Shown here: in pieces, positions 1 to 14,079 of the stretch
Layout of the letters: each line of letters starts with the position of its first letter
Position numbering within the stretch: the first letter of the stretch is position 1
Assembly: GCF_013122565.1 (NCBI RefSeq)
Contig: NZ_CP053258.1
Source of the DNA: Escherichia coli
Lineage (GTDB): Bacteria > Pseudomonadota > Gammaproteobacteria > Enterobacterales > Enterobacteriaceae
DNA length: 64,000 bases
Strand: one strand, 5' to 3'
Position numbers and translations under genes: made by a program
The notes under the pieces: generated by a model
The model's database searches: none
Seen by the model: only the letters and a program-made list of their open reading frames with translations
What the model was told of the DNA's origin: nothing

Positions 1-1125
1 CCATTATTGCTGGATGAACTGCTCGATCCAAACACTCTCTACCAGCCGACGGCGACCGATGCCTACCGTGATGAACTGCGCCAGTATTTGCTGCGCGTGC
101 CGGAAGATGACGAAGAACAACAGCTTGAGGCGCTGCGTCAGTTCAAACAGGCGCAGCTGTTACGCATTGCGGCAGCGGATATCGCCGGTACGCTACCGGT
201 GATGAAAGTGAGCGATCACTTAACCTGGCTGGCGGAAGCTATGATAGATGCCGTCGTTCAGCAGGCGTGGGTTCAAATGGTGGCCCGCTACGGTAAGCCA
301 AATCACCTCAACGAACGTGAAGGGCGCGGTTTTGCGGTGGTCGGCTACGGCAAGCTGGGCGGCTGGGAGTTAGGCTACAGCTCCGATCTTGACCTGATCT
401 TCCTCCATGATTGTCCAATGGATGCGATGACTGACGGCGAGCGGGAAATCGATGGGCGACAGTTTTATCTGCGTCTGGCGCAACGCATTATGCATCTGTT
501 CAGTACGCGTACCTCTTCCGGCATTTTGTATGAAGTAGATGCTCGACTGCGTCCGTCCGGGGCGGCGGGAATGCTGGTGACATCCGCAGAAGCATTTGCC
601 GATTATCAGAAAAACGAGGCCTGGACGTGGGAACATCAGGCGCTGGTGCGTGCGCGTGTAGTGTACGGCGATCCGCAGCTCACCGCGCACTTTGACGCGG
701 TGCGTCGCGAGATTATGACGCTGCCGCGTGAAGGTAAAACTCTGCAAACGGAAGTGCGGGAAATGCGCGAGAAAATGCGCGCTCATCTCGGCAATAAACA
801 TCGCGATCGCTTTGATATCAAAGCCGATGAAGGCGGAATTACCGATATCGAATTTATTACCCAATATCTGGTGTTGCGCTACGCTCATGAAAAACCGAAG
901 TTAACGCGCTGGTCAGACAACGTGCGCATTCTGGAACTACTGGCGCAAAACGACATTATGGAAGAGCAGGAAGCGATGGCGCTGACCCGTGCTTACACGA
1001 CGCTGCGCGATGAACTTCATCATCTTGCATTACAGGAATTGCCGGGCCATGTGTCGGAGGATTGCTTCACCGCAGAGCGTGAACTGGTGCGGGCAAGCTG
1101 GCAGAAGTGGCTGGTGGAAGAATGA
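1..1125 (+). CDS. glnE: Glutamine synthetase adenylyltransferase GlnE, C-terminal part; 5' end lies outside the window
   Basis: Open frame from position 1 to a stop at 1125; translation matches the GlnE nucleotidyltransferase C-terminal domain as remembered; followed directly by hldE as in E. coli. Confidence 0.9.
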
Positions 1126-1172
1126 AGTATGGTATTATCGCGCGCAAATTTTGAATCTCTCAGGAGACAGGA

Positions 1173-2606
1173 ATGAAAGTAACGCTGCCAGAGTTTGAAC
1201 GTGCAGGAGTGATGGTGGTTGGTGATGTGATGCTGGATCGTTATTGGTACGGTCCCACCAGCCGTATCTCGCCGGAAGCGCCGGTGCCCGTGGTTAAAGT
1301 GAATACCATCGAAGAACGTCCGGGCGGCGCGGCTAACGTGGCGATGAACATCGCTTCTCTCGGTGCTAATGCACGCCTGGTCGGGTTGACGGGCATTGAC
1401 GATGCAGCGCGTGCGCTGAGTAAATCTCTGGCCGACGTCAACGTCAAATGCGACTTCGTTTCTGTACCGACGCATCCGACCATCACCAAATTACGGGTAC
1501 TTTCCCGCAACCAACAGCTGATCCGTCTGGATTTTGAAGAAGGTTTCGAAGGTGTTGATCCGCAGCCGCTGCACGAGCGGATTAATCAGACGCTGAGTTC
1601 GATTGGCGCGCTGGTGCTTTCTGACTACGCCAAAGGTGCGCTGGCAAGCGTACAGCAGATGATCCAACTGGCGCGTAAAGCGGGCGTTCCGGTGCTGATT
1701 GATCCAAAAGGTACCGATTTTGAGCGCTACCGCGGCGCTACGCTGTTAACGCCGAATCTCTCGGAATTTGAAGCTGTTGTCGGTAAATGTAAGACCGAAG
1801 AAGAGATTGTTGAGCGCGGCATGAAACTGATTGCCGATTACGAACTCTCGGCTCTGTTAGTGACCCGTTCCGAACAGGGTATGTCGCTGCTTCAACCGGG
1901 TAAAGCGCCGCTGCATATGCCAACCCAGGCGCAGGAAGTGTATGACGTTACCGGCGCGGGCGACACGGTGATTGGCGTCCTGGCGGCAACGCTGGCAGCG
2001 GGTAATTCGCTGGAAGAAGCCTGCTTCTTTGCCAATGCGGCGGCAGGCGTGGTGGTCGGCAAACTGGGAACCTCCACGGTTTCGCCGATCGAGCTGGAAA
2101 ATGCTGTACGTGGACGTGCAGATACCGGCTTTGGCGTGATGACCGAAGAGGAACTGAAGCTGGCTGTAGCGGCAGCGCGTAAACGCGGTGAAAAAGTGGT
2201 GATGACCAATGGCGTCTTTGACATCCTGCACGCCGGGCACGTCTCTTATCTGGCAAATGCCCGTAAACTGGGTGACCGTTTGATTGTCGCCGTCAACAGC
2301 GATGCTTCCACCAAACGGCTGAAAGGGGATTCCCGCCCGGTAAACCCACTCGAACAGCGTATGATTGTGCTGGGCGCACTGGAAGCGGTCGACTGGGTAG
2401 TGTCGTTTGAAGAGGACACACCGCAGCGCTTGATCGCCGGGATCCTGCCAGACCTGCTGGTGAAAGGCGGCGATTATAAACCAGAAGAGATTGCCGGGAG
2501 TAAAGAAGTCTGGGCCAACGGCGGCGAAGTGTTGGTGCTCAACTTTGAAGACGGTTGCTCAACCACTAATATTATCAAGAAGATCCAACAGGATAAAAAA
2601 GGCTAA
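1173..2606 (+). CDS. hldE: Bifunctional D-glycero-beta-D-manno-heptose-7-phosphate kinase / heptose-1-phosphate adenylyltransferase
   Basis: 477-aa ORF; N-terminal ribokinase-like domain with GAGD motif, C-terminal cytidylyltransferase-like domain; ribosome-binding site GGAGA upstream. Confidence 0.95.
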
Positions 2607-2619
2607 CCGGAAAGCGGTT
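2593..2619 (-). terminator. Putative minus-strand intrinsic terminator (hairpin AACCG/CGGTT followed by a U-run) overlapping the hldE stop; candidate ibsD mRNA terminator
   Basis: Read on the minus strand: gaaccgctttccggtt then agccTTTTTT. Confidence 0.35.
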
Positions 2620-2686
2620 CACAGATCTCGCTTCGTAGCAGGCTGGCCTATTGACGCTGTTGTTTTTTCAACCTAAAGTAAAGGAA

Positions 2687-2834
2687 CAAGGGTAAGGGAG
2701 GATTTCTCCCCCCTCTGATGAGTTGTTAGTAAGTCGGGAAACTTAACAGTAACAACACAACCAGTATGATGACGAGCTTCATCATAACCCTTTCCTTCTA
2801 TAAGGCCCCTTCCTCGGGAGGGGCTTTCCCGTTT
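2687..2834 (+). ncRNA. sibD: Sib-type antisense sRNA (antitoxin of ibsD); ends approximate
   Basis: Sigma70-like promoter TTGACG (2651-2656), 17-bp spacer, TAAAGT (2674-2679); hairpin 2805-2824 followed by a weak T-tract; fully antisense to the 19-aa ibs ORF. Confidence 0.6.
2726..2785 (-). CDS. ibsD: Type I toxin Ibs family, 19-aa hydrophobic peptide MMKLVIILVVLLLLSFPTY
   Basis: Hand translation of the minus strand gives ATG ATG AAG CTC GTC ATC ATA CTG GTT GTG TTG TTA CTG TTA AGT TTC CCG ACT TAC TAA; AGGAAAGGG ribosome-binding site upstream; missing from the supplied ORF track because it is shorter than the length cutoff. Confidence 0.8.
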   Translation of the reverse strand: MMKLVIILVVLLLLSFPTY

Positions 2835-2976
2835 CAGCCCCTTGCTGACTCCCCGATTGTTGATGAGCGCCGGACCCCGCGCAACGCTTTCCCTGATGCA
2901 GTTTTCTCTTCCCCGAGTCGACTCGCAAAATGCTGCAACATCCTGATCATTTGCACTTTTTAGCGGAACGCAGATA

Positions 2977-3005
2977 TAAAAAATCCCCGGCTTTTTGGGC
3001 CAGGG
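2977..3005 (-). terminator. Minus-strand intrinsic terminator (CCCUGGC/GCCGGGG stem with G-U wobble, then U6), copy within repeat unit 1, downstream of ibsE
   Basis: Same motif as the terminator after yqiK. Confidence 0.45.
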
Positions 3006-3061
3006 ATATGTGTTAATGAAACCTTCTTGACGCTGATTTTTTTTCAACCTAAAGTAAAGGA

Positions 3062-3210
3062 ACAAGGGTAAGGGAGGATTTCTCCCCCCTCTGATTGGCT
3101 GTTAATAAGCTGCGAAACTTACGAGTAACAACACAATCAGTATGATGACGAGCTTCATCATAACCCTTTCCTTATACAAGGCCCCTTCTTCGGGAGGGGC
3201 TTTCCCGTTT
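3062..3210 (+). ncRNA. sibE: Sib-type antisense sRNA (antitoxin of ibsE); ends approximate
   Basis: Promoter TTGACG (3027-3032), 17-bp spacer, TAAAGT (3050-3055); hairpin 3181-3200 plus T-tract; antisense to ibsE. Confidence 0.6.
3102..3161 (-). CDS. ibsE: Type I toxin Ibs family, 19-aa peptide MMKLVIILIVLLLVSFAAY
   Basis: Hand translation of the minus strand gives ATG ATG AAG CTC GTC ATC ATA CTG ATT GTG TTG TTA CTC GTA AGT TTC GCA GCT TAT TAA. Confidence 0.8.
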   Translation of the reverse strand: MMKLVIILIVLLLVSFAAY

Positions 3211-3353
3211 CAGCCCCTTGCTGACTCCCCGATTGTTGATGAGCGCCGGACCCCGCGCAACGCTTTCCCTGAGGTAGTTTTGCCTTCCCCGAGCGGTCAC
3301 GCAAAATGCTGCAACAGCCCGATCATTTGCACTTTTTATCGGAACGCAGATAT

Positions 3354-3381
3354 AAAAAATCCCCGGCTTTTTGGGCCAGGG
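3354..3381 (-). terminator. Intrinsic terminator downstream of yqiK (minus strand)
   Basis: Minus-strand hairpin ccctggcccaaaaagccgggg followed by auuuuuu, 19 nt after the yqiK stop. Confidence 0.6.
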
Positions 3382-3399
3382 ACGTTCATAGCTGAAAAT

Positions 3400-5061
3400 T
3401 TATTCTACGTTTTCGGCGACGGGAGTTGTTGAGGTTAAGGGTGAAGTCAATGCCGCCAGTGAGCCGCCTGAAACGCCAATTTCATTGAGCAAGGAGTCAA
3501 TCAGCGGTGCCTGTGTGCGGTAAGAGAGAGCGGCTGATAATGCTTGTTCCGCCAGGTTTCCGCCCCCCACATTACCCGTGTTTGCATCACCCGCAGCGCT
3601 GCCACGATTCAGACCATCGACCTGAATAATCTTGATACCGTCAATAGATTTCATCGGCTCAACGGATTTTTCTATTACCGCAGGTAGCGCCTGCAACAAG
3701 GCCAGTTTGAATTTAAGGCTGGTTTGTTCATCAGAAAGTACGTTGATAGCATCGTTCAGCGCACGTTGTGCTTCTGCTTCCGCCAGACCCTTTTTACGTG
3801 TAGCTTCGGCTAACTCAACGATAGCCGCCGCCTGCATCTCTGCGGCTTCTTTTTCTGCTTTCGCCCGCACGGTCAGTTCAACCGCTTTGGTTTCTGCATC
3901 CTGCGCGGCAGCGATTAGGGCAACTTGTTTAGCACGATCGGCTTCGGCAGTCTGGCGAGTGGTTTCTACGTTTTGTTGGGCGCTTACCGCTTCTGCAAGT
4001 GCGAGATTAGCACGCGCTTCTGCCTGGGACTGTTGTTCCGATTTGGCGGCAATAGCGATCGATTTCGTCTGGTTAGCGATTTCGGTGACCTGCTGCTGTT
4101 CGATCTCTTTAATGCGAACTTCACGTTCAGCTTCAACCTTTCTTGAGCGGACGGCCTGTTCGCGGTCGATTTCTGTTTCCTGAATCTGTCGTTCAGCCAG
4201 AATTCGTGTCTGCTCTGCTTCACGACGACGTTCAGCTTCAAAAGCCGCAATACGTGCATTCTGTTCGGCAGTACGGGTTTTAACCTGCTGCTCCTGCTCA
4301 AGCGTCATAAACGCTTCTTGCTGTTCAATCTCCAGCTTGCGCGATAGCGCATCGCGATTTTTTTCACGCACCGCAACTTCTACATCCTGTTCAACTTCGT
4401 TACGTTCGCGGCGACGGCGCTCTGTTTCCTGAGTCAGTTTGGTTAAACCTTCGGCGTCAAAGGCATTGTTCGGATTGAAATGTTCTTTCGAGGTCTGGTT
4501 AAAGTTGGTAAGTGAAACGCTCTCCAGTTCCAGACCGTTTTTCGACAGGTCTTCTGCCACTGTATTTTGCACCCCCTGCACGAAGTTCTCGCGGGTATCC
4601 TGTAACTCATGCATGGTCATTTGCGCAGCTGTTGCACGGAGGGCATCGACAAATTTATCTTCAACCAACATACGTAAGTCTTCAGGCGACAGGGTGCGTT
4701 GCCCCAGCGTCTGGGCAGCGGTGGCAATCCCTTCTACTGAAGGTTTTACCCGCACAAAGAAAGCGACTACTACATCGACGCGCATACGATCTTTCGTAAT
4801 CAGGCTATCAATAGTTGAGCGGCTGACTTCCAGCTTCAGAGTATTCATATTGATGGGGATTATTTCATGAAAGATCGGCATCACGATTGCGCCACCGCTC
4901 ATTACCACTTTTTGCCCCCCTAAGCCGGTACGGACAAATGCTTGCTCTGCCGAAGCGCGACGATAGAGCCTGGCGAAAATAATTCCAATAATAAACAGAA
5001 TGCATACGGCAATAATCGCGGTAAACATCCAGGAGGGCACAGAATTAGCAATATCATCCAT
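3400..5061 (-). CDS. yqiK: Flotillin-like SPFH/band-7 membrane protein
   Basis: 553-aa ORF; N-terminal transmembrane segment, SPFH domain, long Ala/Glu/Gln-rich coiled-coil region. Confidence 0.9.
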   Translation of the reverse strand: MDDIANSVPSWMFTAIIAVCILFIIGIIFARLYRRASAEQAFVRTGLGGQKVVMSGGAIVMPIFHEIIPINMNTLKLEVSRSTIDSLITKDRMRVDVVVAFFVRVKPSVEGIATAAQTLGQRTLSPEDLRMLVEDKFVDALRATAAQMTMHELQDTRENFVQGVQNTVAEDLSKNGLELESVSLTNFNQTSKEHFNPNNAFDAEGLTKLTQETERRRRERNEVEQDVEVAVREKNRDALSRKLEIEQQEAFMTLEQEQQVKTRTAEQNARIAAFEAERRREAEQTRILAERQIQETEIDREQAVRSRKVEAEREVRIKEIEQQQVTEIANQTKSIAIAAKSEQQSQAEARANLALAEAVSAQQNVETTRQTAEADRAKQVALIAAAQDAETKAVELTVRAKAEKEAAEMQAAAIVELAEATRKKGLAEAEAQRALNDAINVLSDEQTSLKFKLALLQALPAVIEKSVEPMKSIDGIKIIQVDGLNRGSAAGDANTGNVGGGNLAEQALSAALSYRTQAPLIDSLLNEIGVSGGSLAALTSPLTSTTPVAENVE

Positions 5062-5087
5062 TATTAAATTTCCTTTTGATTAATAAA

Positions 5088-5717
5088 TTACAATATTTGG
5101 GGCCAGGGATTGTTTTCCGCCAAATATCGAGTTGCAGAAAGTCGGCAAATAATTAACACTTTGTCTCCTTTAGTGAAAATTTTTCCTTCTTCAGGCTCCA
5201 GTAGTAAATAATGTATTTGGCCAAATTGATCGGTGAGTTTTCCTTCGCAGGGATTACCTGAAGTGGCTTGATGACCGGTAATTAACGCCATGCTACCAAT
5301 ATATTCTTCTTCTGTAATAGCTGAACTATGATCGCGTGGAATCCAGGGCGCAACTATTTTACCGGTATAATGCACCGCAATAATCGTAAATAGTAAACTG
5401 ACAGGAACCACAAACAGGTTCGAGAGTGGTGATTGCCAGACCATGATGCAGGTATGCTGCAACAGGATGCCAATAAGACCAAAAAAACCAGCCAGTAAGC
5501 AAAGAACGACGAGAGCTGGCAATCTTCCGATATTGAGATAATGAAGTGCCTGGCTAATATGACCTGTGGTTATGGAATCATAATGGTCAAGATGTGCATC
5601 AAGTGCACCGGAGAGCATGTGACCGCAGATAAGCGCAAAAATTTCTAAAAGGCCGATCAACAGTACAAAGGAAATAGCGAAAAGATAAGGGGTGTTATAG
5701 TCGGCGAATAAAATCAT
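5088..5717 (-). CDS. yqiJ: NfeD-like inner membrane protein, partner of YqiK
   Basis: 209-aa polytopic hydrophobic ORF immediately upstream of yqiK on the same strand. Confidence 0.85.
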
Positions 5718-5985
5718 ATGTCACTCCAATGTCCATTTAGTGACGCAATATTTACTTTGGGATAGTTTCCTTGCTTACATTTATCTTTGTTAATAATAAC
5801 ACATGTTAGAGAAGTTCTGGAAGAAAAAGTCTTTTAATATGGTTTTTTATTTTTCACTAAAAAGTGTGATCGGGGACAATATATTTACGCACGTTATGTT
5901 TAAAGGCACTACACTGATTGGGGAATACTGAAATCAGAAAAAGCATATGGCCTTAAAAGGTATGCGATAACCGGAGGATGTGCTT

Positions 5986-6186
5986 ATGGATCATAGTCTT
6001 AATTCTTTAAATAACTTCGATTTCCTGGCGCGTAGTTTTGCCAGAATGCACGCAGAAGGTCGCCCGGTCGATATTCTGGCCGTTACTGGTAACATGGATG
6101 AAGAACATAGAACCTGGTTTTGCGCACGTTATGCCTGGTATTGCCAACAGATGATGCAAACCAGAGAACTTGAATTAGAACACTGA
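5986..6186 (+). CDS. glgS: Glycogen synthesis / surface-composition regulator GlgS (66 aa)
   Basis: Translation [66 protein letters not shown]; long AT-rich upstream region. Confidence 0.9.
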
Positions 6187-6190
6187 TATT

Positions 6191-6213
6191 ACGGGCCGTC
6201 TGGCCCGTTTTTG
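6191..6213. terminator. Terminator hairpin (CGGGCC gtct GGCCCG + T-run) in the convergent glgS/ubiK junction
   Basis: Perfect 6-bp GC stem followed by TTTTT; sits between the stop codons of convergent genes. Confidence 0.6.
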
Positions 6214-6220
6214 TGTTGCT

Positions 6221-6520
6221 TTATTCTGCTTTATCAATAGGCGGGATAGCCGGAGGAGATTGAAGATCTGCTACCGAATTATTGCGCGCTTCCAGTTCAC
6301 TGATGCGTTGCTCCAGTAACGCCAGTTTCTCACGAGTCCGTAACAGGACTTGCGTTTGGACGTCGAACTCTTCACGGCTTACAAGGTCGAGGCGCGTCAG
6401 CTGCGCTTGTAGGGTTTGGCGGATTTTTTTCTCCACATCTTCCCCGAACTCCCTGATTCCTTTAGGCATTGATTCGTGAACCTGGCGAGCGATTTGCTCA
6501 ATTTTTTTCGGGTCAATCAT
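6221..6520 (-). CDS. ubiK: Ubiquinone biosynthesis accessory factor UbiK (YqiC, BMFP family)
   Basis: ORF 6221-6580; start placed at internal Met ([13 protein letters not shown]...) to give ~99 aa; coiled-coil protein. Confidence 0.8.
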
Positions 6521-6606
6521 TGTAGTTTCCCTGTACTGATAGGTGTTGAGTGCCATTGTAGTGCGATAAGGGTAAGTCATAAACCAGAATTATGTGAAGC
6601 TATGCG

Positions 6607-6635
6607 TTGCTGCCGCTAATCATTAGCGTTATAGT
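6607..6635 (+). promoter_or_regulatory. Putative ribB promoter (-35 TTGCTG, 17-bp spacer, -10 TATAGT)
   Basis: Hexamers with canonical spacing just upstream of the riboswitch aptamer. Confidence 0.5.
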
Positions 6636-6644
6636 GAATCCGCT

Positions 6645-6795
6645 TATTCTCAGGGCGGGGCGAAATTCCCCACCGGCGGTAAATCAACTTGGTTGAAAGC
6701 CCGCGAGCGCTTTGAGTGCGAACTCAAAGGACAGCAGATCCGGTGTAATTCCGGGGCCGACGGTTAGAGTCCGGATGGGAGAGAGTAACGATTCT
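6645..6795 (+). promoter_or_regulatory. FMN riboswitch (RFN element) in the ribB leader; boundaries approximate
   Basis: Conserved RFN core: GGGCGGGGCGAAATTCCCCACCGGCGGTAAA...CCGGGGCCGACGGTTAGAGTCCGGATGGGAGAG upstream of ribB. Confidence 0.85.
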
Positions 6796-6893
6796 GTCGG
6801 GCATGGACCCGCTCACGTTATTTTGGCTATATGCCGCCACTCCTAAGACTGCCCTGATTCTGGTAACCATAATTTTAGTGAGGTTTTTTTACC

Positions 6894-7547
6894 ATGAATC
6901 AGACGCTACTTTCCTCTTTTGGTACGCCTTTCGAACGTGTTGAAAATGCACTGGCTGCGCTGCGTGAAGGACGCGGTGTAATGGTGCTTGATGATGAAGA
7001 CCGTGAAAACGAAGGTGATATGATCTTCCCGGCAGAAACCATGACTGTTGAGCAGATGGCGCTGACCATTCGCCACGGTAGCGGTATTGTTTGCCTGTGC
7101 ATTACTGAAGATCGCCGTAAACAACTTGATCTGCCAATGATGGTAGAAAATAACACCAGCGCCTATGGCACCGGTTTTACCGTGACCATTGAAGCGGCTG
7201 AAGGTGTGACTACCGGTGTTTCTGCCGCTGACCGTATTACGACCGTTCGCGCAGCGATTGCCGATGGCGCAAAACCTTCTGATCTGAATCGCCCTGGCCA
7301 CGTTTTCCCACTTCGCGCGCAGGCAGGTGGTGTACTGACGCGTGGCGGTCATACTGAAGCGACTATTGATCTGATGACGCTGGCAGGCTTTAAACCGGCT
7401 GGTGTGCTGTGTGAGCTGACTAATGACGATGGCACGATGGCGCGTGCACCAGAGTGCATTGAGTTTGCCAATAAACACAATATGGCGCTCGTGACTATTG
7501 AAGACCTGGTGGCATACCGTCAGGCACATGAGCGTAAAGCCAGCTGA
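6894..7547 (+). CDS. ribB: 3,4-dihydroxy-2-butanone 4-phosphate synthase
   Basis: 217-aa ORF matching RibB as remembered ([17 protein letters not shown]). Confidence 0.95.
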
Positions 7548-7580
7548 AAACCGCTGCTTAATTTACTGCCTTAATCAAGA

Positions 7581-7614
7581 AACCGAAGTTGTAGCAGGCT
7601 TCGGTTTTTATTTT
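7581..7614 (+). terminator. Intrinsic terminator after ribB
   Basis: Stem AACCGAAG / CTTCGGTT followed by TTTTTATTTT. Confidence 0.7.
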
Positions 7615-7808
7615 GCCCTGCTATGCAAGATGTTAATTCCGCTTCTCTTTCTATGAGAAAATTTCATTAATATCAGGCATTCTTTTTCATTATGATCAAA
7701 ATCATATAATTGTTCCGTTATTATGCGACCATATGAATATATCCGAAAAAGGATATGTGAAATTTATGCGCTAAATGTTTAGTATTGTTAAATATTAAGG
7801 GTAAAAGG

Positions 7809-7979
7809 ATGTTTATCGCCTGGTACTGGATTGTATTGATTGCTCTGGTTGTGGTGGGTTATTTCCTGCATTTGAAACGTTATTGTCGGGCGTTTCGCCA
7901 GGACAGAGACGCACTGCTTGAAGCGCGGAACAAATACTTAAACAGTACGAGAGAAGAGACAGCTGAAAAGGTAGAATAA
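7809..7979 (+). CDS. Small hypothetical membrane protein (~56 aa): one transmembrane helix plus a charged tail
   Basis: ATG with AAGGG ribosome-binding site; translation MFIAWYWIVLIALVVVGYFLHLKRYCRAFRQDRDALLEARNKYLNSTREETAEKVE; AT-rich upstream region. Confidence 0.4.
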   Translation: MFIAWYWIVLIALVVVGYFLHLKRYCRAFRQDRDALLEARNKYLNSTREETAEKVE

Positions 7980-8036
7980 GGCTTTCGTGAAGCTGGCAGA
8001 AGTTGTCCATGCGCTGGACAACTTCTGATGTTGTTT

Positions 8037-8810
8037 TTAACCAATTCCCGCCGTTTGTAGTAGCACTAAACTGAATCCCATCACTGACATTCCACATAGT
8101 ACGCCATAGCTGGGGTTATTATTAGGGTCAATCTCTTTGGCGAGCGGCATTAATTCATCAACCGAGAGCGCCACCATAATTCCTGCAACCGCCGCCATGA
8201 TTGCCGCCATGACCACCGGGGAAATCATGCTACCGAGGATTAACCACGCCAGCACACCACCAAGAATTTCTGCCAATCCAGAAATCCCCGCCCACAGAAT
8301 TGCCGTGCGTTTAGAACCCGTTGCTGCATAAACCGGGCCTGCAACCGCCAGACCTTCAGGAATATTGTGCAACGCGACGGCCAGTGCGATGCCAAATCCC
8401 AGCTCCAGGTTGCTGCTCGCCGTGACAAAGGTGGCAATCCCTTCCGGGAAGTTATGCAGACTGATGCCGAGAGTGAGCAGAATGGCTGTGCGCTTGATCG
8501 ATTTTGGCAACGGCTGCACCGATTTTTGCATTAAATCCTGCGGATGCGCATGTGGCAACATGCGGTCCAGGCCAAAATAGCCAAGCAGACCGAAGATAAA
8601 CATTCCATAACCCAACACAGGCGACATTCCTTCAGCGGCTAGTGCGGCAGGAAGCATTTCCATTAATGAGATGAGCAACATGATCCCCGCCGCAAATCCT
8701 AGCGAAAACGCCAGTAAGCGGTTCGAGGGTTTTTGCCCGAGAACGCCGAGAAACGCGCCAATAAACGTGGCTGCCCCCGCCAGTATGGTCAGAATGAGAG
8801 GTACTGACAT
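8037..8810 (-). CDS. zupT: Zinc transporter ZupT (ZIP family)
   Basis: ORF 8037-8852; start placed at [12 protein letters not shown] (257 aa); ZIP-family HNxPEG motifs. Confidence 0.9.
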
Positions 8811-8925
8811 CGACAACTCCTTATAAATCTTCACCTTCAGGCAGATTGTCAAAATAACTGATGATCATCATCATTGTTATCCGGGTTCTTACTCCGCCGA
8901 ACAAGCGTATTGTGAGGATATCAAA

Positions 8926-9741
8926 ATGACACCTTTAGTTAAGGATATCATCATGTCTTCAACACGTATGCCAGCATTGTTTTTAGGTCACGGTAGTCCG
9001 ATGAACGTGCTGGAAGATAATTTGTATACCCGCAGCTGGCAGAAGTTGGGGATGACATTGCCACGCCCGCAAGCGATTGTGGTGGTTTCGGCTCACTGGT
9101 TTACCCGTGGAACAGGAGTGACCGCGATGGAGACGCCGCCCACGATTCATGACTTTGGTGGCTTCCCGCAGGCGCTGTACGATACGCATTATCCTGCTCC
9201 GGGTTCGCCTGCGCTGGCACAGCGTCTGGTTGAGCTGTTAGCGCCGATCCCGGTGACGCTGGATAAAGAAGCCTGGGGCTTTGACCACGGCTCGTGGGGC
9301 GTGCTGATTAAGATGTATCCTGACGCTGATATCCCGATGGTGCAGTTGAGTATCGACAGTAGCAAACCTGCCGCCTGGCATTTCGAAATGGGGCGCAAAC
9401 TGACAGCGCTGCGAGATGAAGGAATAATGTTGGTCGCCAGCGGTAACGTGGTGCATAACCTGCGCACAGTGAAGTGGCACGGTGATAGTTCACCGTATCC
9501 GTGGGCGACGTCGTTTAATGAGTATGTGAAAGCGAATCTGACGTGGCAAGGGCCAGTGGAACAACATCCTCTGGTGAATTACCTCGACCATGAAGGTGGC
9601 GCGTTATCGAACCCAACGCCAGAGCATTATCTGCCGTTGTTGTATGTGTTAGGTGCGTGGGATGGGCAGGAGCCAATTACCATTCCGGTTGAGGGTATAG
9701 AAATGGGCAGCCTGAGTATGCTGTCGGTGCAGGTAGGTTAA
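8926..9741 (+). CDS. ygiD: Extradiol ring-cleavage dioxygenase class III (4,5-DOPA dioxygenase-like)
   Basis: 271-aa ORF; position between zupT and ygiC; exact start uncertain. Confidence 0.8.
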   Translation: MTPLVKDIIMSSTRMPALFLGHGSPMNVLEDNLYTRSWQKLGMTLPRPQAIVVVSAHWFTRGTGVTAMETPPTIHDFGGFPQALYDTHYPAPGSPALAQRLVELLAPIPVTLDKEAWGFDHGSWGVLIKMYPDADIPMVQLSIDSSKPAAWHFEMGRKLTALRDEGIMLVASGNVVHNLRTVKWHGDSSPYPWATSFNEYVKANLTWQGPVEQHPLVNYLDHEGGALSNPTPEHYLPLLYVLGAWDGQEPITIPVEGIEMGSLSMLSVQVG

Positions 9742-9778
9742 CAATTACCGGATGGCGAATGCCATCCGGTATCATTGA

Positions 9779-10939
9779 TTATTCAACAAAAATATGTGGA
9801 TAAAACCGAGACATATCCTGGGTGATCAATGCACGGTCTTCACGAATGCCAATTCCGGCAGGTTGATCGTTCACCAGCCAGCTACCAATCAGCATATAGC
9901 TGTCGCCGAATTTCGGTAACGGGTGGAATTGCTGAACAATCATTCCTTCTTCGCCATACGGACCTTCCGCTGCTTCAATGGTTTTGCCGTTCTCAATGAT
10001 CGACACGTTTGCGCCTTCACGGGAGAAGATTGGTTTAACCACATATTTTTCCATTTGCGGATGATCATCTTCCGCAAAATAAGCGGGCAGCAGGTTCGGG
10101 TGATTCGGGAACATCTCCCACAGTAGCGGCAGCAATGCTTTGTTGGAGATAATGCTCTTCCATGCCGGTTCCAGCCAGCGTACGCCTGCATCCTCCAGCT
10201 TGGTGGAGAACATCTCACGCAGCATAAATTCCCACGGATACAGCTTGAACAGGTTAGAAATCACCTGATCCTGTAAATCCGTGAACTGACCTTTTTCACC
10301 TAACCCGATATCGTCAATGTAGAGGAACTCGGTAGCGATTTCAGCTTCCGTCGCGCAGTCCTGCAAATACTGAATGGTTCCGCGATCTTCCACCGTGTCG
10401 CGACAGCAGGTGAGATGCAGCAACTGGAAGCCATACTGTTCACGCAGCTCAACGAAGCGATCGATCAGTTTTTCTTGCAGACTGTTAAACTGGTCGCTGC
10501 CCTCCGGCAAGTTACCGGCGTTAAGCTGATCTTCCAGCCAGATCCACTGAAAGAACGCCGCCTCGTATAGTGACGTTGGCGTATCGGCGTTATTTTCCAG
10601 AAGTTTAGGTTCGCCAGTGCCATCCCACGCCAGATCAAGACGCGAATAAAGCGATGGCTGGTGCGTCAGCCATGACTGGCGCACAAAACTCCAGGTGTGT
10701 TTTGGAATGCGGAATTTGGTCATCAGCTCATCGCTGGCGATCACTTTTTCCACCACTTTCAGGCACATCTGGTGCAGTTCGGCGGTGACTTCTTCCAGCT
10801 TTTCAACCTGGGCGAGGGTCAACTTGTAGTAAGCATCTTCACACCAGTACGGCTCGCCGTACATGGTGTGAAAATTGAAACCGTATTCGCGGGCTTTCTC
10901 ACGCCAGTCCGGGCGCTCGGTAATACTCACTCTTTCCAT
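9779..10939 (-). CDS. ygiC: Glutathionylspermidine synthase-like ATP-grasp protein
   Basis: 386-aa ORF; downstream of ygiB on the same strand. Confidence 0.85.
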
Positions 10940-10944
10940 CGGTA

Positions 10945-11616
10945 TCAGCCACCCATTGAACGAGAAGAGGTACCGGTTGCGCTACGCTGCATAGTGCTTT
11001 GTTTGGCAACAGATTCACCAAAACCGCCACGGGTAACGGTAGTGGTGGTCGCCGGTTTTGGTGCCATTGCCGTCTTCGGTACGGTCATGGTGCGGCCTGG
11101 CTGGGCTGCGCCATAGTTTTTACCCGTCGCGTCGGTATATTTACCGTAAGCCGGGCTGGCTGGGTTTTTCGAGGAGAACAGCGGCTGCTGTGCAAATCCC
11201 GCGCCGCCGCCCATCAGACGCCCCATCATGTAACCGGCCATCAGCGGCATCCAGAAACTCCCGCTGGATTGCTGAGCCTGCGCCTGGTTTTCTGGTGCCA
11301 TGCCAGCCTGGGCTGGTGCTTGCTGGCACTGACCTTCACCAAATTCAGCAACACAGTCTTCACGGGTGGCGTATTTCGGCGCAGTACGTTCGGCTTCTTT
11401 CAGCGCATTGTTGTACGCGGTGGTACATTCGGCGCTTTTGCCTGGGTTTGCAGCTGAACAGTCGTCAGCATTTTGATAGAGAGACACTGTTTCATCACTC
11501 TTTTCACAGCCAGCCAGCATAAAAACAGTGGCAACCGCGAGAGCGACTGGTGTCAGATGGCGTGCGCTCCAGTTTTTGCGGAACGATGCGTGGCGTATGG
11601 ATTTTGTCCGTTTCAT
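10945..11616 (-). CDS. ygiB: DUF1190-family protein
   Basis: ORF 10945-11649; start placed at MKRTKSIRH (223 aa). Confidence 0.8.
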
Positions 11617-11763
11617 TTTTGTCTTCCGGGACCAGTGGTAAATACCCATCAGAATAGAGGATGGCTGGTCGAAATTGAAGCGAGAAGGGGGAAGAATGCG
11701 GCAGATAACCCGTATCTTTACGTTGCCTTACGTTCAGACGGGGCCGAAGCCCCGTCGTCGTCA

Positions 11764-13245
11764 TCAGTTACGGAAAGGGTTATGACCGTTACTGGTGGTA
11801 GTGCGTGCGGATGTTTGCTGAACGACGGGTGCCGGGCTATCAGGCGCATAACCATCAGCAATAGCATTCTGTTCCGGCGTTTGCGGGGCAACGTTTTCCG
11901 GATTAGTGGAAACCGGTTTGCTCAGCGCATTGTTCAGTGCCAGCAGATCCTGCTCGTTCAACGTACCCAAGGCTGACTTAATATTCAGCTGATTAATCAG
12001 GTAGTTATAACGCGCATTCGCCAGCTCTTGCTTGGCGTTGTACAGCGTGGTGGTCGCATCCAACACATCAACAATGGTACGCGTACCGACCGAGTAGCCC
12101 GCTTCCATCGCGTCTAATGAGCTTTGAGCGGAAACTACGGCTTGTTTGTAGGCGTTAATGCTACTGATAGAAGCATTAATGTTGTTGAAGGAGGAACGTA
12201 CGGTTTGCACGACGCTGCGATGCGCGCTTTCCAGTTGCTCGCTGGCACCGACAAAGTTGTACTGGGCCTGTTTCACCTGCGAGTTAACCATTCCGCCCTG
12301 ATAAATCGGCAGCGAGAAGCTCAGGCCAACTTTGTTCTGGCCCATATTGCTATCGTCATACTGGGTACCAGCGGCACCACGGGTTTTCGAACCGCTATAA
12401 GAGGTGTCAGAAATCCCGGTAGAAGCCGTTAAATCCAGAGTCGGTAAGTGACCATCCTGCGCCTGGCGAATTTGCTCGCGCGCCAGGTCCTGGCTCAAGC
12501 GTGCCTGTAACAGCGACAGGTTGCGTTTTTCGGCTTCTTTCAGCAGCGCGTTAACCGGCTGTGGTTTGTCGGTTTTAAAGTTTTCGACATTCAGCGCCGC
12601 CAGTTCCGGATAGTAGTTACCGGTGATCTGGCGCAGCTGCTCTACCGCGTTATCAAGGTTATTACGTGCGGTCACTTCGTTCGCCAGCACGGTATCGTAC
12701 TGCGCGCGGGCGTTCTGCACGTCGGTGATCGCTACCAGGCCCACGTTAAAACGTTGGGTGGTTTGATCTAATTGACGGTAGATCGCTTCTTTTTGCGCCT
12801 GTGTATAGGAAAGAACGTCAATAGCATTCAACACGTTGAAATAAGCGGTCGCGGTGTTGAGGATCAAGGTTTGCTGATCGGTCTGATACGTGACGTCCTG
12901 AATCCCTGCTGCTTTTTCCTGCAGCGTTAACGCACGCCATTTCGACATATCAAAAATGGATTGAGTTAACTGCAGGGACGCACTGGTCGCGTTAGAGTTG
13001 ATGCCGTTCGCGTCGCGGTAGCCGTTGCTATAGGTGTAATCTGCACCTAAACCTAGCTGTGGCAGTAATGGACTGCGCGCTTCATTAATTTTTTCAAAGG
13101 CAGCATCACGATCGGCGGCAGATTTACGCAATTCCGGGTTACTAAGGCGTGCTTGCTGATAAACTTGCATCAGGTTCTCGGCCTGGCTCAACGAACTGAA
13201 CCCAGAAAGGCTCAGGCCGATAAGAATGGGGAGCAATTTCTTCAT
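11764..13245 (-). CDS. tolC: Outer membrane efflux channel TolC
   Basis: ORF 11764-13284; start placed at MKKLLPILIGLSLSGFSSLSQA signal peptide (493 aa). Confidence 0.95.
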   Translation of the reverse strand: MKKLLPILIGLSLSGFSSLSQAENLMQVYQQARLSNPELRKSAADRDAAFEKINEARSPLLPQLGLGADYTYSNGYRDANGINSNATSASLQLTQSIFDMSKWRALTLQEKAAGIQDVTYQTDQQTLILNTATAYFNVLNAIDVLSYTQAQKEAIYRQLDQTTQRFNVGLVAITDVQNARAQYDTVLANEVTARNNLDNAVEQLRQITGNYYPELAALNVENFKTDKPQPVNALLKEAEKRNLSLLQARLSQDLAREQIRQAQDGHLPTLDLTASTGISDTSYSGSKTRGAAGTQYDDSNMGQNKVGLSFSLPIYQGGMVNSQVKQAQYNFVGASEQLESAHRSVVQTVRSSFNNINASISSINAYKQAVVSAQSSLDAMEAGYSVGTRTIVDVLDATTTLYNAKQELANARYNYLINQLNIKSALGTLNEQDLLALNNALSKPVSTNPENVAPQTPEQNAIADGYAPDSPAPVVQQTSARTTTSNGHNPFRN

Positions 13246-13321
13246 TTGCATTCCTTGTGGTGAAGCAGTATTTAGCGCGATCAAACTGTAAAATTATTGC
13301 GGATTCTAGCAGAAGCCGCTA

Positions 13322-13348
13322 CCGCAAAAGGTTGGCGTTACGTGCCAT
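13322..13348. promoter_or_regulatory. Putative mar/sox/rob box in the tolC promoter region
   Basis: Sequence ccgcaaaaggttggcgttacgtgccat (reverse complement ATGGCACGTAACGCCAACCTTTTGCGG) upstream of tolC; resembles the marbox consensus from memory. Confidence 0.4.
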
Positions 13349-13449
13349 AGGGCGTTAATGTGCCTCAATTTAACACATGACTGCTCAAACGGCAGTCAAA
13401 CGTCGCTGAAATTCACATTTAATTCACTATTAGTGCCAGGACATTAACA

Positions 13450-14079
13450 ATGCTTAAGCCAGACAACCTGCCCGTTACATTTGGCAAAAACGATGTAGAA
13501 ATTATTGCACGAGAAACACTTTATCGCGGCTTTTTTTCATTAGATCTTTATAGATTTCGTCATCGTCTATTCAACGGGCAAATGAGTCATGAGGTACGGC
13601 GGGAAATTTTTGAGCGCGGTCACGCCGCAGTCTTGCTACCCTTTGACCCAGTGCGTGATGAAGTTGTGCTGATTGAGCAGATTCGAATTGCCGCGTACGA
13701 CACTAGCGAAACCCCCTGGCTACTGGAGATGGTTGCCGGGATGATTGAAGAGGGTGAAAGTGTGGAAGATGTTGCCCGTCGCGAAGCGATTGAAGAGGCG
13801 GGGCTGATAGTCAAACGGACCAAACCGGTGTTAAGTTTCCTGGCAAGCCCGGGGGGCACCAGTGAGCGTTCGTCAATTATGGTGGGCGAAGTGGACGCCA
13901 CGACCGCAAGCGGTATTCATGGTCTGGCTGATGAAAACGAAGATATTCGCGTTCATGTGGTAAGCCGGGAACAGGCATACCAGTGGGTAGAAGAGGGGAA
14001 AATCGACAACGCAGCGTCGGTCATCGCTTTGCAATGGCTGCAGCTGCATCATCAAGCGTTAAAAAATGAGTGGGCATAA
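13450..14079 (+). CDS. nudF: ADP-ribose pyrophosphatase (Nudix)
   Basis: 209-aa ORF with Nudix box ([23 protein letters not shown]). Confidence 0.9.

Follow-up and report, generated by a model that had tools for sequence, protein, structure and literature searches.

The convergent glgS–ubiK junction of an Escherichia coli strain as a probable unoccupied, ancestral-type site

Gene order and hairpin at the junction

The glgS–ubiK junction is described here within the window, that is, the whole 64-kb stretch of Escherichia coli DNA that was analysed. The glgS coding sequence (5986–6186, + strand) encodes 66 amino acids; it was taken from the list of open reading frames (ORFs), is matched over its full length by the Pfam family GlgS (PF08971, E = 1.1e-45) and carries the same annotation in matching E. 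coli genomes. Its conserved left-hand neighbour is yqiJ (5088–5717, − strand), placed by the ORF list and by the annotation of matching genomes. On the other side of the junction lies ubiK, also named yqiC (6221–6520, − strand), an ORF whose product of 99 amino acids is matched over residues 1–78 by the Pfam family BMFP (PF04380). This protein, which belongs to the isoform treated below as ancestral-type, is identical to UbiK of E. coli N3 (WP_001298379.1). Further to the right, an FMN riboswitch (6642–6790, + strand; Rfam RF00050, 121 bits, E = 3.6e-29) is located upstream of ribB (6894–7547, + strand), which is directly followed by yqiD (7785–7979, + strand) and then by zupT (− strand), all three genes being taken from the ORF list.

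As read from the nucleotides and the list of ORFs, glgS and ubiK run towards each other, and their stop codons are separated by a spacer of exactly 34 bp (6187–6220) with no ORF in it. The nearly abutting arrangement with a gap of about 34 bp, claimed in the original prediction, is thus reproduced. The predicted absence of a fimbrial operon also holds beyond the junction itself: there are no fimbrial ORFs between the two genes, and a tblastn search with the K-12 proteins YgiL, YqiG, YqiH and YqiI (E ≤ 1e-5) yielded no relatives in the whole 64-kb window. An Rfam scan of positions 5000–8000 at a permissive threshold produced no match at the junction, only the FMN riboswitch and sub-threshold noise. 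A weak sub-threshold match of this kind to STnc240, an enterobacterial sRNA, is located just past the ribB stop codon (7546–7616; 30 bits against a gathering score of 55).

The spacer contains a GC-rich hairpin (6191–6208, no strand assigned; ACGGGCC-GTCT-GGCCCGT), recognized by a + strand match in the terminator scan, by folding and by conservation. The single GC hairpin common to both genes that had been expected is therefore present. Its stem of 7 bp includes six GC pairs, closes a 4-nt loop and is followed on the + strand by TTTTTGTGTT, with a T-run (6209–6213) directly 3′ of the hairpin in the glgS sense. The core hairpin has a free energy of −13.3 kcal/mol on either strand, and in a 66-nt context its fold is more stable than 200 of 200 shuffled sequences (z = −4.4 for the + strand and −5.3 for the − strand). 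A GC-rich stem-loop directly before a U-run is the sequence pattern of a Rho-independent terminator, and it is found here in the glgS sense. The pattern scan calls a terminator on the + strand only. The hairpin with its U-run is inferred to be the Rho-independent terminator of glgS, a prediction made from the nucleotide pattern.

The opposite direction is less clear-cut. No − strand terminator was returned by the pattern scan of the junction, and the ubiK-sense tail AAUAUCAG breaks the U-tract rule of the scan; on the − strand the DNA after the stem reads AATATCAG. On the + strand, the sequence 5′ of the stem is TGATATTA, with no A-run. The flanking T-runs claimed earlier are thus found on the 3′ side of the + strand and not on the 5′ side, where neither TGATATTA nor the ubiK-sense RNA AAUAUCAG provides one. 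Ju, Li and Liu are said to have described, in Nature Microbiology in 2019, intrinsic terminators common to convergent genes under the name of bidirectional terminators. The junction resembles such elements in having a single GC-rich hairpin in the 34 bp between the stop codons of convergent genes and a U-run in the glgS sense. It differs from them in the lack of a proper U-tract in the opposite sense (AAUAUCAG) and of an A-run 5′ of the stem on the + strand, which leaves the symmetric layout of A-tract, hairpin and U-tract incomplete. The window's junction does not have U-runs following the stem in both senses, with an A-tract on the 5′ side and a T-tract on the 3′ side.

Transcription of ubiK arriving from the opposite side would find only this glgS hairpin as a stem-loop to halt on, the hairpin at 6191–6208 being the sole one downstream of ubiK in the window. 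A lower efficiency is to be expected for ubiK since the U-tract is poor on the ubiK strand. Bidirectional action at the hairpin is therefore possible, and the sequence points to it weakly; the structure suggested as a bidirectional terminator is canonical for glgS, and on the − strand there is no scan match and the ubiK U-tract is poor. A literature search on termination at glgS, including the term "bidirectional terminator", yielded no published account.

Comparison with K-12 and the two forms of UbiK

In E. coli K-12 MG1655 the gene order is ubiK–ygiL–yqiG::IS2–yqiH–yqiI–glgS (b3043–b3048). The original prediction had placed an IS2-containing chaperone-usher cluster between yqiC/ubiK and glgS on the K-12 map, and it is indeed seen in MG1655, with IS2 inside yqiG and not at the edge of the island. 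Alignment of the window's junction to K-12 and other E. coli genomes, proposed as a check, confirmed that the K-12 junction is occupied and not tight. The K-12 operon locus (ygiL–yqiG–yqiH–yqiI) and the window share the flanking genes and the chromosomal neighbourhood; all four fimbrial genes are present in K-12 and none of the four in the window.

The difference between the two alleles is not a mere insertion into the spacer. In blastn alignments, positions 5000–6217 of the window correspond to the glgS side of K-12, and positions 6290–7600 to the ubiK side. Between these two blocks, 72 bp (6218–6289, − strand) lack a counterpart in K-12, their place being taken by 6,637 bp, including the 1.3-kb IS2. 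As delimited by the blastn breakpoints, the translations and the alignment, this stretch specific to the empty allele consists of 3 bp of the spacer, the ubiK stop codon and UbiK codons 78–99. Codon 78 of ubiK, and not the 34-bp spacer, is where the boundary of the island falls. The picture of a simple empty site is accordingly right with regard to the missing operon and incomplete with regard to its edges, where 72 bp are exchanged for 6,637 bp. K-12 keeps the hairpin beside glgS, with a different loop and facing yqiI, and the 3′ end of its glgS has diverged from that of the window. K-12-type alleles also possess an additional hairpin of their own just past ubiK (pair I6 in strain D3).

As a consequence of the boundary inside ubiK, the two alleles encode different UbiK C-termini, which may be of use to genome annotators and to those working on UbiK. 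The proteins of the window and of K-12 are identical through residue 77, and their tails differ from residue 78 onwards (tail-specific stretches compared: window 6218–6289 and L001 5072–5131). The ancestral form found in the window has 99 amino acids, and the K-12 type has 96. The motif PAIPP(V/I)D is kept in the tail of the window protein and is missing from the K-12 tail. In its wider form, PAIP[PS][VI][DE], the motif is found in the window and in 37 of the 80 loci obtained by a UbiK scan of species-representative genomes. The Pfam BMFP domain ends at residue 78, where the two isoforms part. The coiled coil of UbiK (residues 53–80) contacts UbiJ (PMC9499169), and the point of tail divergence is near the end of this coiled coil.

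Distribution of the alleles and the ancestral state

The population set comprises 5,426 complete E. coli genomes. A contiguous glgS–ubiK junction is present in 2,066 of them (~38%). The yqiI–glgS junction is found in 3,264 and the ubiK–ygiL junction in 3,255 of the 5,426, so that about 3,260 genomes (~60%) carry the operon. Empty junctions are exemplified by O157:H7, LF82, ST131, N3 and LHM10-1; the occupied strains K-12, D3, EC6, 700481 and IAI39 have the same operon in the same place. Presence or absence of the K-12-type yqi operon is an already known, ordinary polymorphism of E. coli. The case is in this respect a small matter, which leaves the understanding of fimbriae, of terminators and of ubiquinone synthesis unchanged.

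Approximately 100 of the 5,426 genomes fall into neither count, for example those with an IS1 insertion or a deletion. In H17 (ampC_0069; NZ_CP046396.1, 722778–724754), IS1 is located within an otherwise empty yqiJ–glgS–ubiK–ribB stretch. In E. coli BS-01 (L093 2501–2970), ubiK is only 267 bp long (88 amino acids) and ends 2 bp from glgS, the tail and the hairpin region having apparently been deleted.

A collapse or mis-join during assembly that dropped the operon could in principle produce a tight junction. The identical 34-bp junction, hairpin and UbiK tail occur in 2,066 finished E. coli genomes, and other genera have the arrangement as well; the probability of such an artefact is close to nil.

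The neighbourhood has two alternative sites for fimbrial operons, ubiK–glgS and yqiD–ribB, and both are empty in this strain, a point that may also be helpful for annotation. In LF82 and ST131 the glgS–ubiK junction is empty and a chaperone-usher operon is located between yqiD and ribB (loci of such operons: L090 1–2127, L092 1–1822 and L087 1950–7625). An operon abuts ribB in 991 of the 5,426 E. coli genomes, and ribB and yqiD are contiguous in 4,429, as they are in the window (6894–7979). If the two operons are assumed to be mutually exclusive, roughly one genome in five has neither. According to Wurpel et al. 2013 (PMC3559732), Yqi and Yqi-like fimbriae are specific to lineages and exclude one another, and the cluster of ExPEC adhesin I (EA/I, "yqi") has been described as absent from MG1655 (Antão et al. 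2009, PMC2771359). EA/I and the Yqi/Yqi-like fimbriae are related chaperone-usher operons, whose presence or absence by lineage in E. coli is thus already documented. Since EA/I is reported absent from MG1655, where the K-12 ygiL-yqiGHI operon is present, and since Yqi and Yqi-like fimbriae exclude each other, EA/I is probably the ribB-side operon rather than ygiL-yqiGHI.

In E. fergusonii, where no operon separates ubiK from glgS, a Yqi-related operon (35–60% amino acid identity) is located on the ribB side. A Yqi-related four-gene chaperone-usher operon at yqiD–ribB is also present in many Enterobacter, Citrobacter and Klebsiella.

Among the 80 species loci, glgS is convergent with ubiK and abuts it in all 19 that have glgS, and fimbrial genes lie between them in none of the 19. 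These loci belong to E. albertii, a divergent Escherichia representative (L003), S. enterica arizonae, eight Citrobacter, and two each of Raoultella, Klebsiella, Superficieibacter and Pseudocitrobacter. The spacer measures 28–73 bp in 18 of the 19 loci and 241 bp in one; most fall within 28–34 bp, including those of E. albertii, L003, Citrobacter and Raoultella. Escherichia, Salmonella, Citrobacter, Raoultella and Klebsiella share the stem ACGGGCC/GGCCCGT, which is invariant wherever present and closes a loop that varies between genera; at the equivalent position, Superficieibacter and Pseudocitrobacter form another hairpin. In Citrobacter and Raoultella the T/A-rich runs on the two sides of the hairpin are more symmetric than in the window. 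For S. Typhimurium, YqiC has been described as a protein of 99 residues whose gene is convergent with glgS (PMC3107778).

Salmonella, Citrobacter, E. albertii and the empty E. coli share with the window the order of yqiJ, glgS, ubiK and the FMN riboswitch–ribB unit, a spacer of about 30 bp, the stem ACGGGCC/GGCCCGT and the long PAIPP(V/I)D tail of UbiK. Because all outgroups with glgS have abutting genes and the tail motif is family-wide, the empty junction with the long UbiK tail is ancestral and the occupied allele derived. On these comparisons, the window very probably (at a probability of about 0.88) carries an unoccupied, ancestral-type allele of the glgS–ubiK junction. The original prediction had read the junction as the unoccupied ancestral site, and the same layout in every glgS-bearing outgroup, together with the published Salmonella arrangement, speaks for it.

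The polarity could be reversed if the occupied state were ancestral for E. coli and the empty allele had been re-imported from another species. Occupied genomes do form the majority (~60%), and the operon is spread across several phylogroups, as K-12 and IAI39 illustrate. The outgroups, however, are all empty, and the tail of the empty-type UbiK bears the family-conserved motif. Moreover, the flanks of the empty junction resemble those of E. albertii and the other Escherichia representative, whereas the occupied flanks carry states of their own. A re-import of the empty allele is thus very unlikely.

Origin of the occupied allele and history of the window

The differences fixed between occupied and empty alleles are concentrated next to the island. 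On the glgS side, 13 of them occur within 74 bp (6144–6217), and the 426 bp beyond contain none; for ubiK, 13 occur within 103 bp (6290–6392), all of them synonymous, and the 500 bp beyond are again free of them. The resulting flank divergence of 13–18% is at the level observed between genera. The boundaries of this mosaic are identical in K-12, D3, EC6 and 700481, the occupied alleles of the SNP table. The island has a GC content of 35–46%, against ~50% for the ribB-side and yqiK-side flanks.

Entry of the island by transposition or through an integrase was considered and rejected, because the ends of the island have no terminal repeats and no mobility gene. The boundaries of the intact D3 island were searched for terminal direct and inverted repeats, and only chance-level matches were obtained, none of them at the boundaries; the island annotations of K-12 and D3 contain no integrase.

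The simplest reading of the flanks is probably a single import of the operon together with foreign flanking DNA. An AT-rich chaperone-usher operon of ~5.3 kb (ygiL-yqiGHI) would have entered in one event of homologous recombination with DNA of a diverged enterobacterium, the crossovers falling within ubiK around nt 129–200 and within glgS around nt 144–160. In the same event, a foreign tail would have taken the place of the final ~20 ubiK codons. Alternatively, the high divergence beside the indel could reflect alleles of great age in tight linkage, with no import at all.

A K-12-type UbiK tail was found in none of the 80 species loci, and none of them combines the tail with the operon. In a protein search, K-12-type tails were confined to E. 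coli and Shigella, apart from a single diverged relative, P0022, with the tail …NRSTVTVVKDDQETLPPTL. The contigs encoding P0022 (L085 152–846 and L086 235–929; Logan SRR33454298 and ERR3179213) come from an enterobacterial taxon ~78–82% identical to E. coli. In both, ubiK and glgS are separated by 191 bp of AT-rich spacer with two hairpins and no fimbrial operon. A relative of the K-12-type tail is thus present in a different taxon, which is in line with an import, and this taxon may have affinities with the lineage that donated the flank of the island in E. coli.

A functional consequence of the import is conceivable, though improbable. The acquisition would have overwritten the end of ubiK and divided E. 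coli into strains with the 99-residue ancestral UbiK and strains with a 96-residue UbiK bearing a foreign tail, and the tail would matter for UbiJ–UbiK assembly or for membrane behaviour. The 96-residue form is present in ~60% of E. coli strains, including K-12, where UbiK was characterised. If the proposal were true, conclusions on ubiquinone biology drawn in K-12 would not be representative of the ancestral UbiK, the fimbrial island would be genetically hitch-hiked to a variant of a respiratory-cofactor protein, and the allele of the window would be a natural case of island removal with restoration of the native tail.

The allele of the window itself combines states of both types. In the SNP table, the 3′ end of glgS and the hairpin (6144–6217, + strand) are empty-type at 13 of 13 discriminating sites. 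The UbiK tail, the spacer, the hairpin loop and the glgS 3′ end are all native; the tail, the loop and the glgS 3′ end match those of other empty E. coli exactly and resemble those of E. albertii. Positions 6356–6392 (− strand, ubiK nt 129–165) form an occupied-type patch of eight synonymous SNPs, in which all 8 states are shared with the four occupied alleles of the table and with none of its five further empty alleles. This patch sets the window apart from other empty E. coli, as it occurs in none of the 2,058 empty-junction complete genomes. The best identity of these genomes over positions 6187–6420 (234 bp) is 96.2%; because no empty genome exceeds this value, the combination of the 8-SNP patch with an empty junction is unique in the complete-genome set. 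On its pattern of SNPs, the ubiK allele of the window is a recombinant.

This bears on the alternative left by the original prediction, in which the operon was either never acquired or cleanly lost. Recent and precise excision of the operon from a K-12-type allele, whether illegitimate or repeat-mediated, would account for its absence and for nothing else. Such an event would leave a K-12-type or hybrid UbiK tail, glgS 3′ end and hairpin loop, whereas the window has the native version of each, and there are no repeats flanking the island to mediate excision. With the tail, spacer, hairpin loop and glgS 3′ end all native, de novo deletion is so improbable that it is treated as excluded. A clean loss is therefore tenable only as replacement by an empty allele through homologous recombination.

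Two histories would fit the observed pattern: an occupied ancestor that lost the island to an incoming empty allele, or an empty ancestor that gained a short patch from an occupied donor. The former is a particular case of the preferred reading, concerned with the history of the strain, and is held tentatively, at somewhat less than even odds. In it, ygiL-yqiGHI would once have been present and would have been lost by homologous replacement with empty-allele DNA, one crossover falling in a 35-bp stretch of identical ubiK sequence (6321–6355). The patch at 6356–6392, with its 8 of 8 states otherwise confined to occupied alleles, is consistent with such a loss, as is the occurrence of patch and empty junction together in 0 of the 2,058 empty genomes. 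The closest complete genomes on the left (IAI39) and on the right (700481) are also both occupied. The same pattern would nevertheless be left by a short patch from an occupied donor in a recipient that had always been empty; positions 6500–8250 are nearly identical to the empty LHM10-1, and the best matches reach only 98.0–99.0%, with no close clonal relative. The claim that the operon was never acquired thus corresponds to one of the two fitting histories and is not established, because the occupied-type SNP patch shows exchange with occupied alleles in the lineage. In either history, the junction of the window is read as the unoccupied, ancestral-type allele.

The wider window also has a mixed ancestry. 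Sliding mismatch counts against 12 references describe a fine mosaic over positions 1–14000, in which the nearest relative switches every 1–2 kb. Some stretches are identical to IAI39/K-12 (3501–4750) or to LHM10-1 (7001–8250). The nearest complete genome is IAI39 on the far left and 700481 on the far right, and between positions 6500 and 8250 it is LHM10-1, with 0–2 mismatches per 250 bp. Among the 5,426 complete genomes the best identity is 98.0% for positions 1–5700 and 99.0% for positions 7600–30000; the strain is not closely represented in this set. The most divergent part of the left flank is located between hldE and yqiK (~2650–3400), where two tandem units of the Ibs/Sib type (type I toxin-antitoxin) are present, corresponding to ibsD/sibD and ibsE/sibE of K-12.
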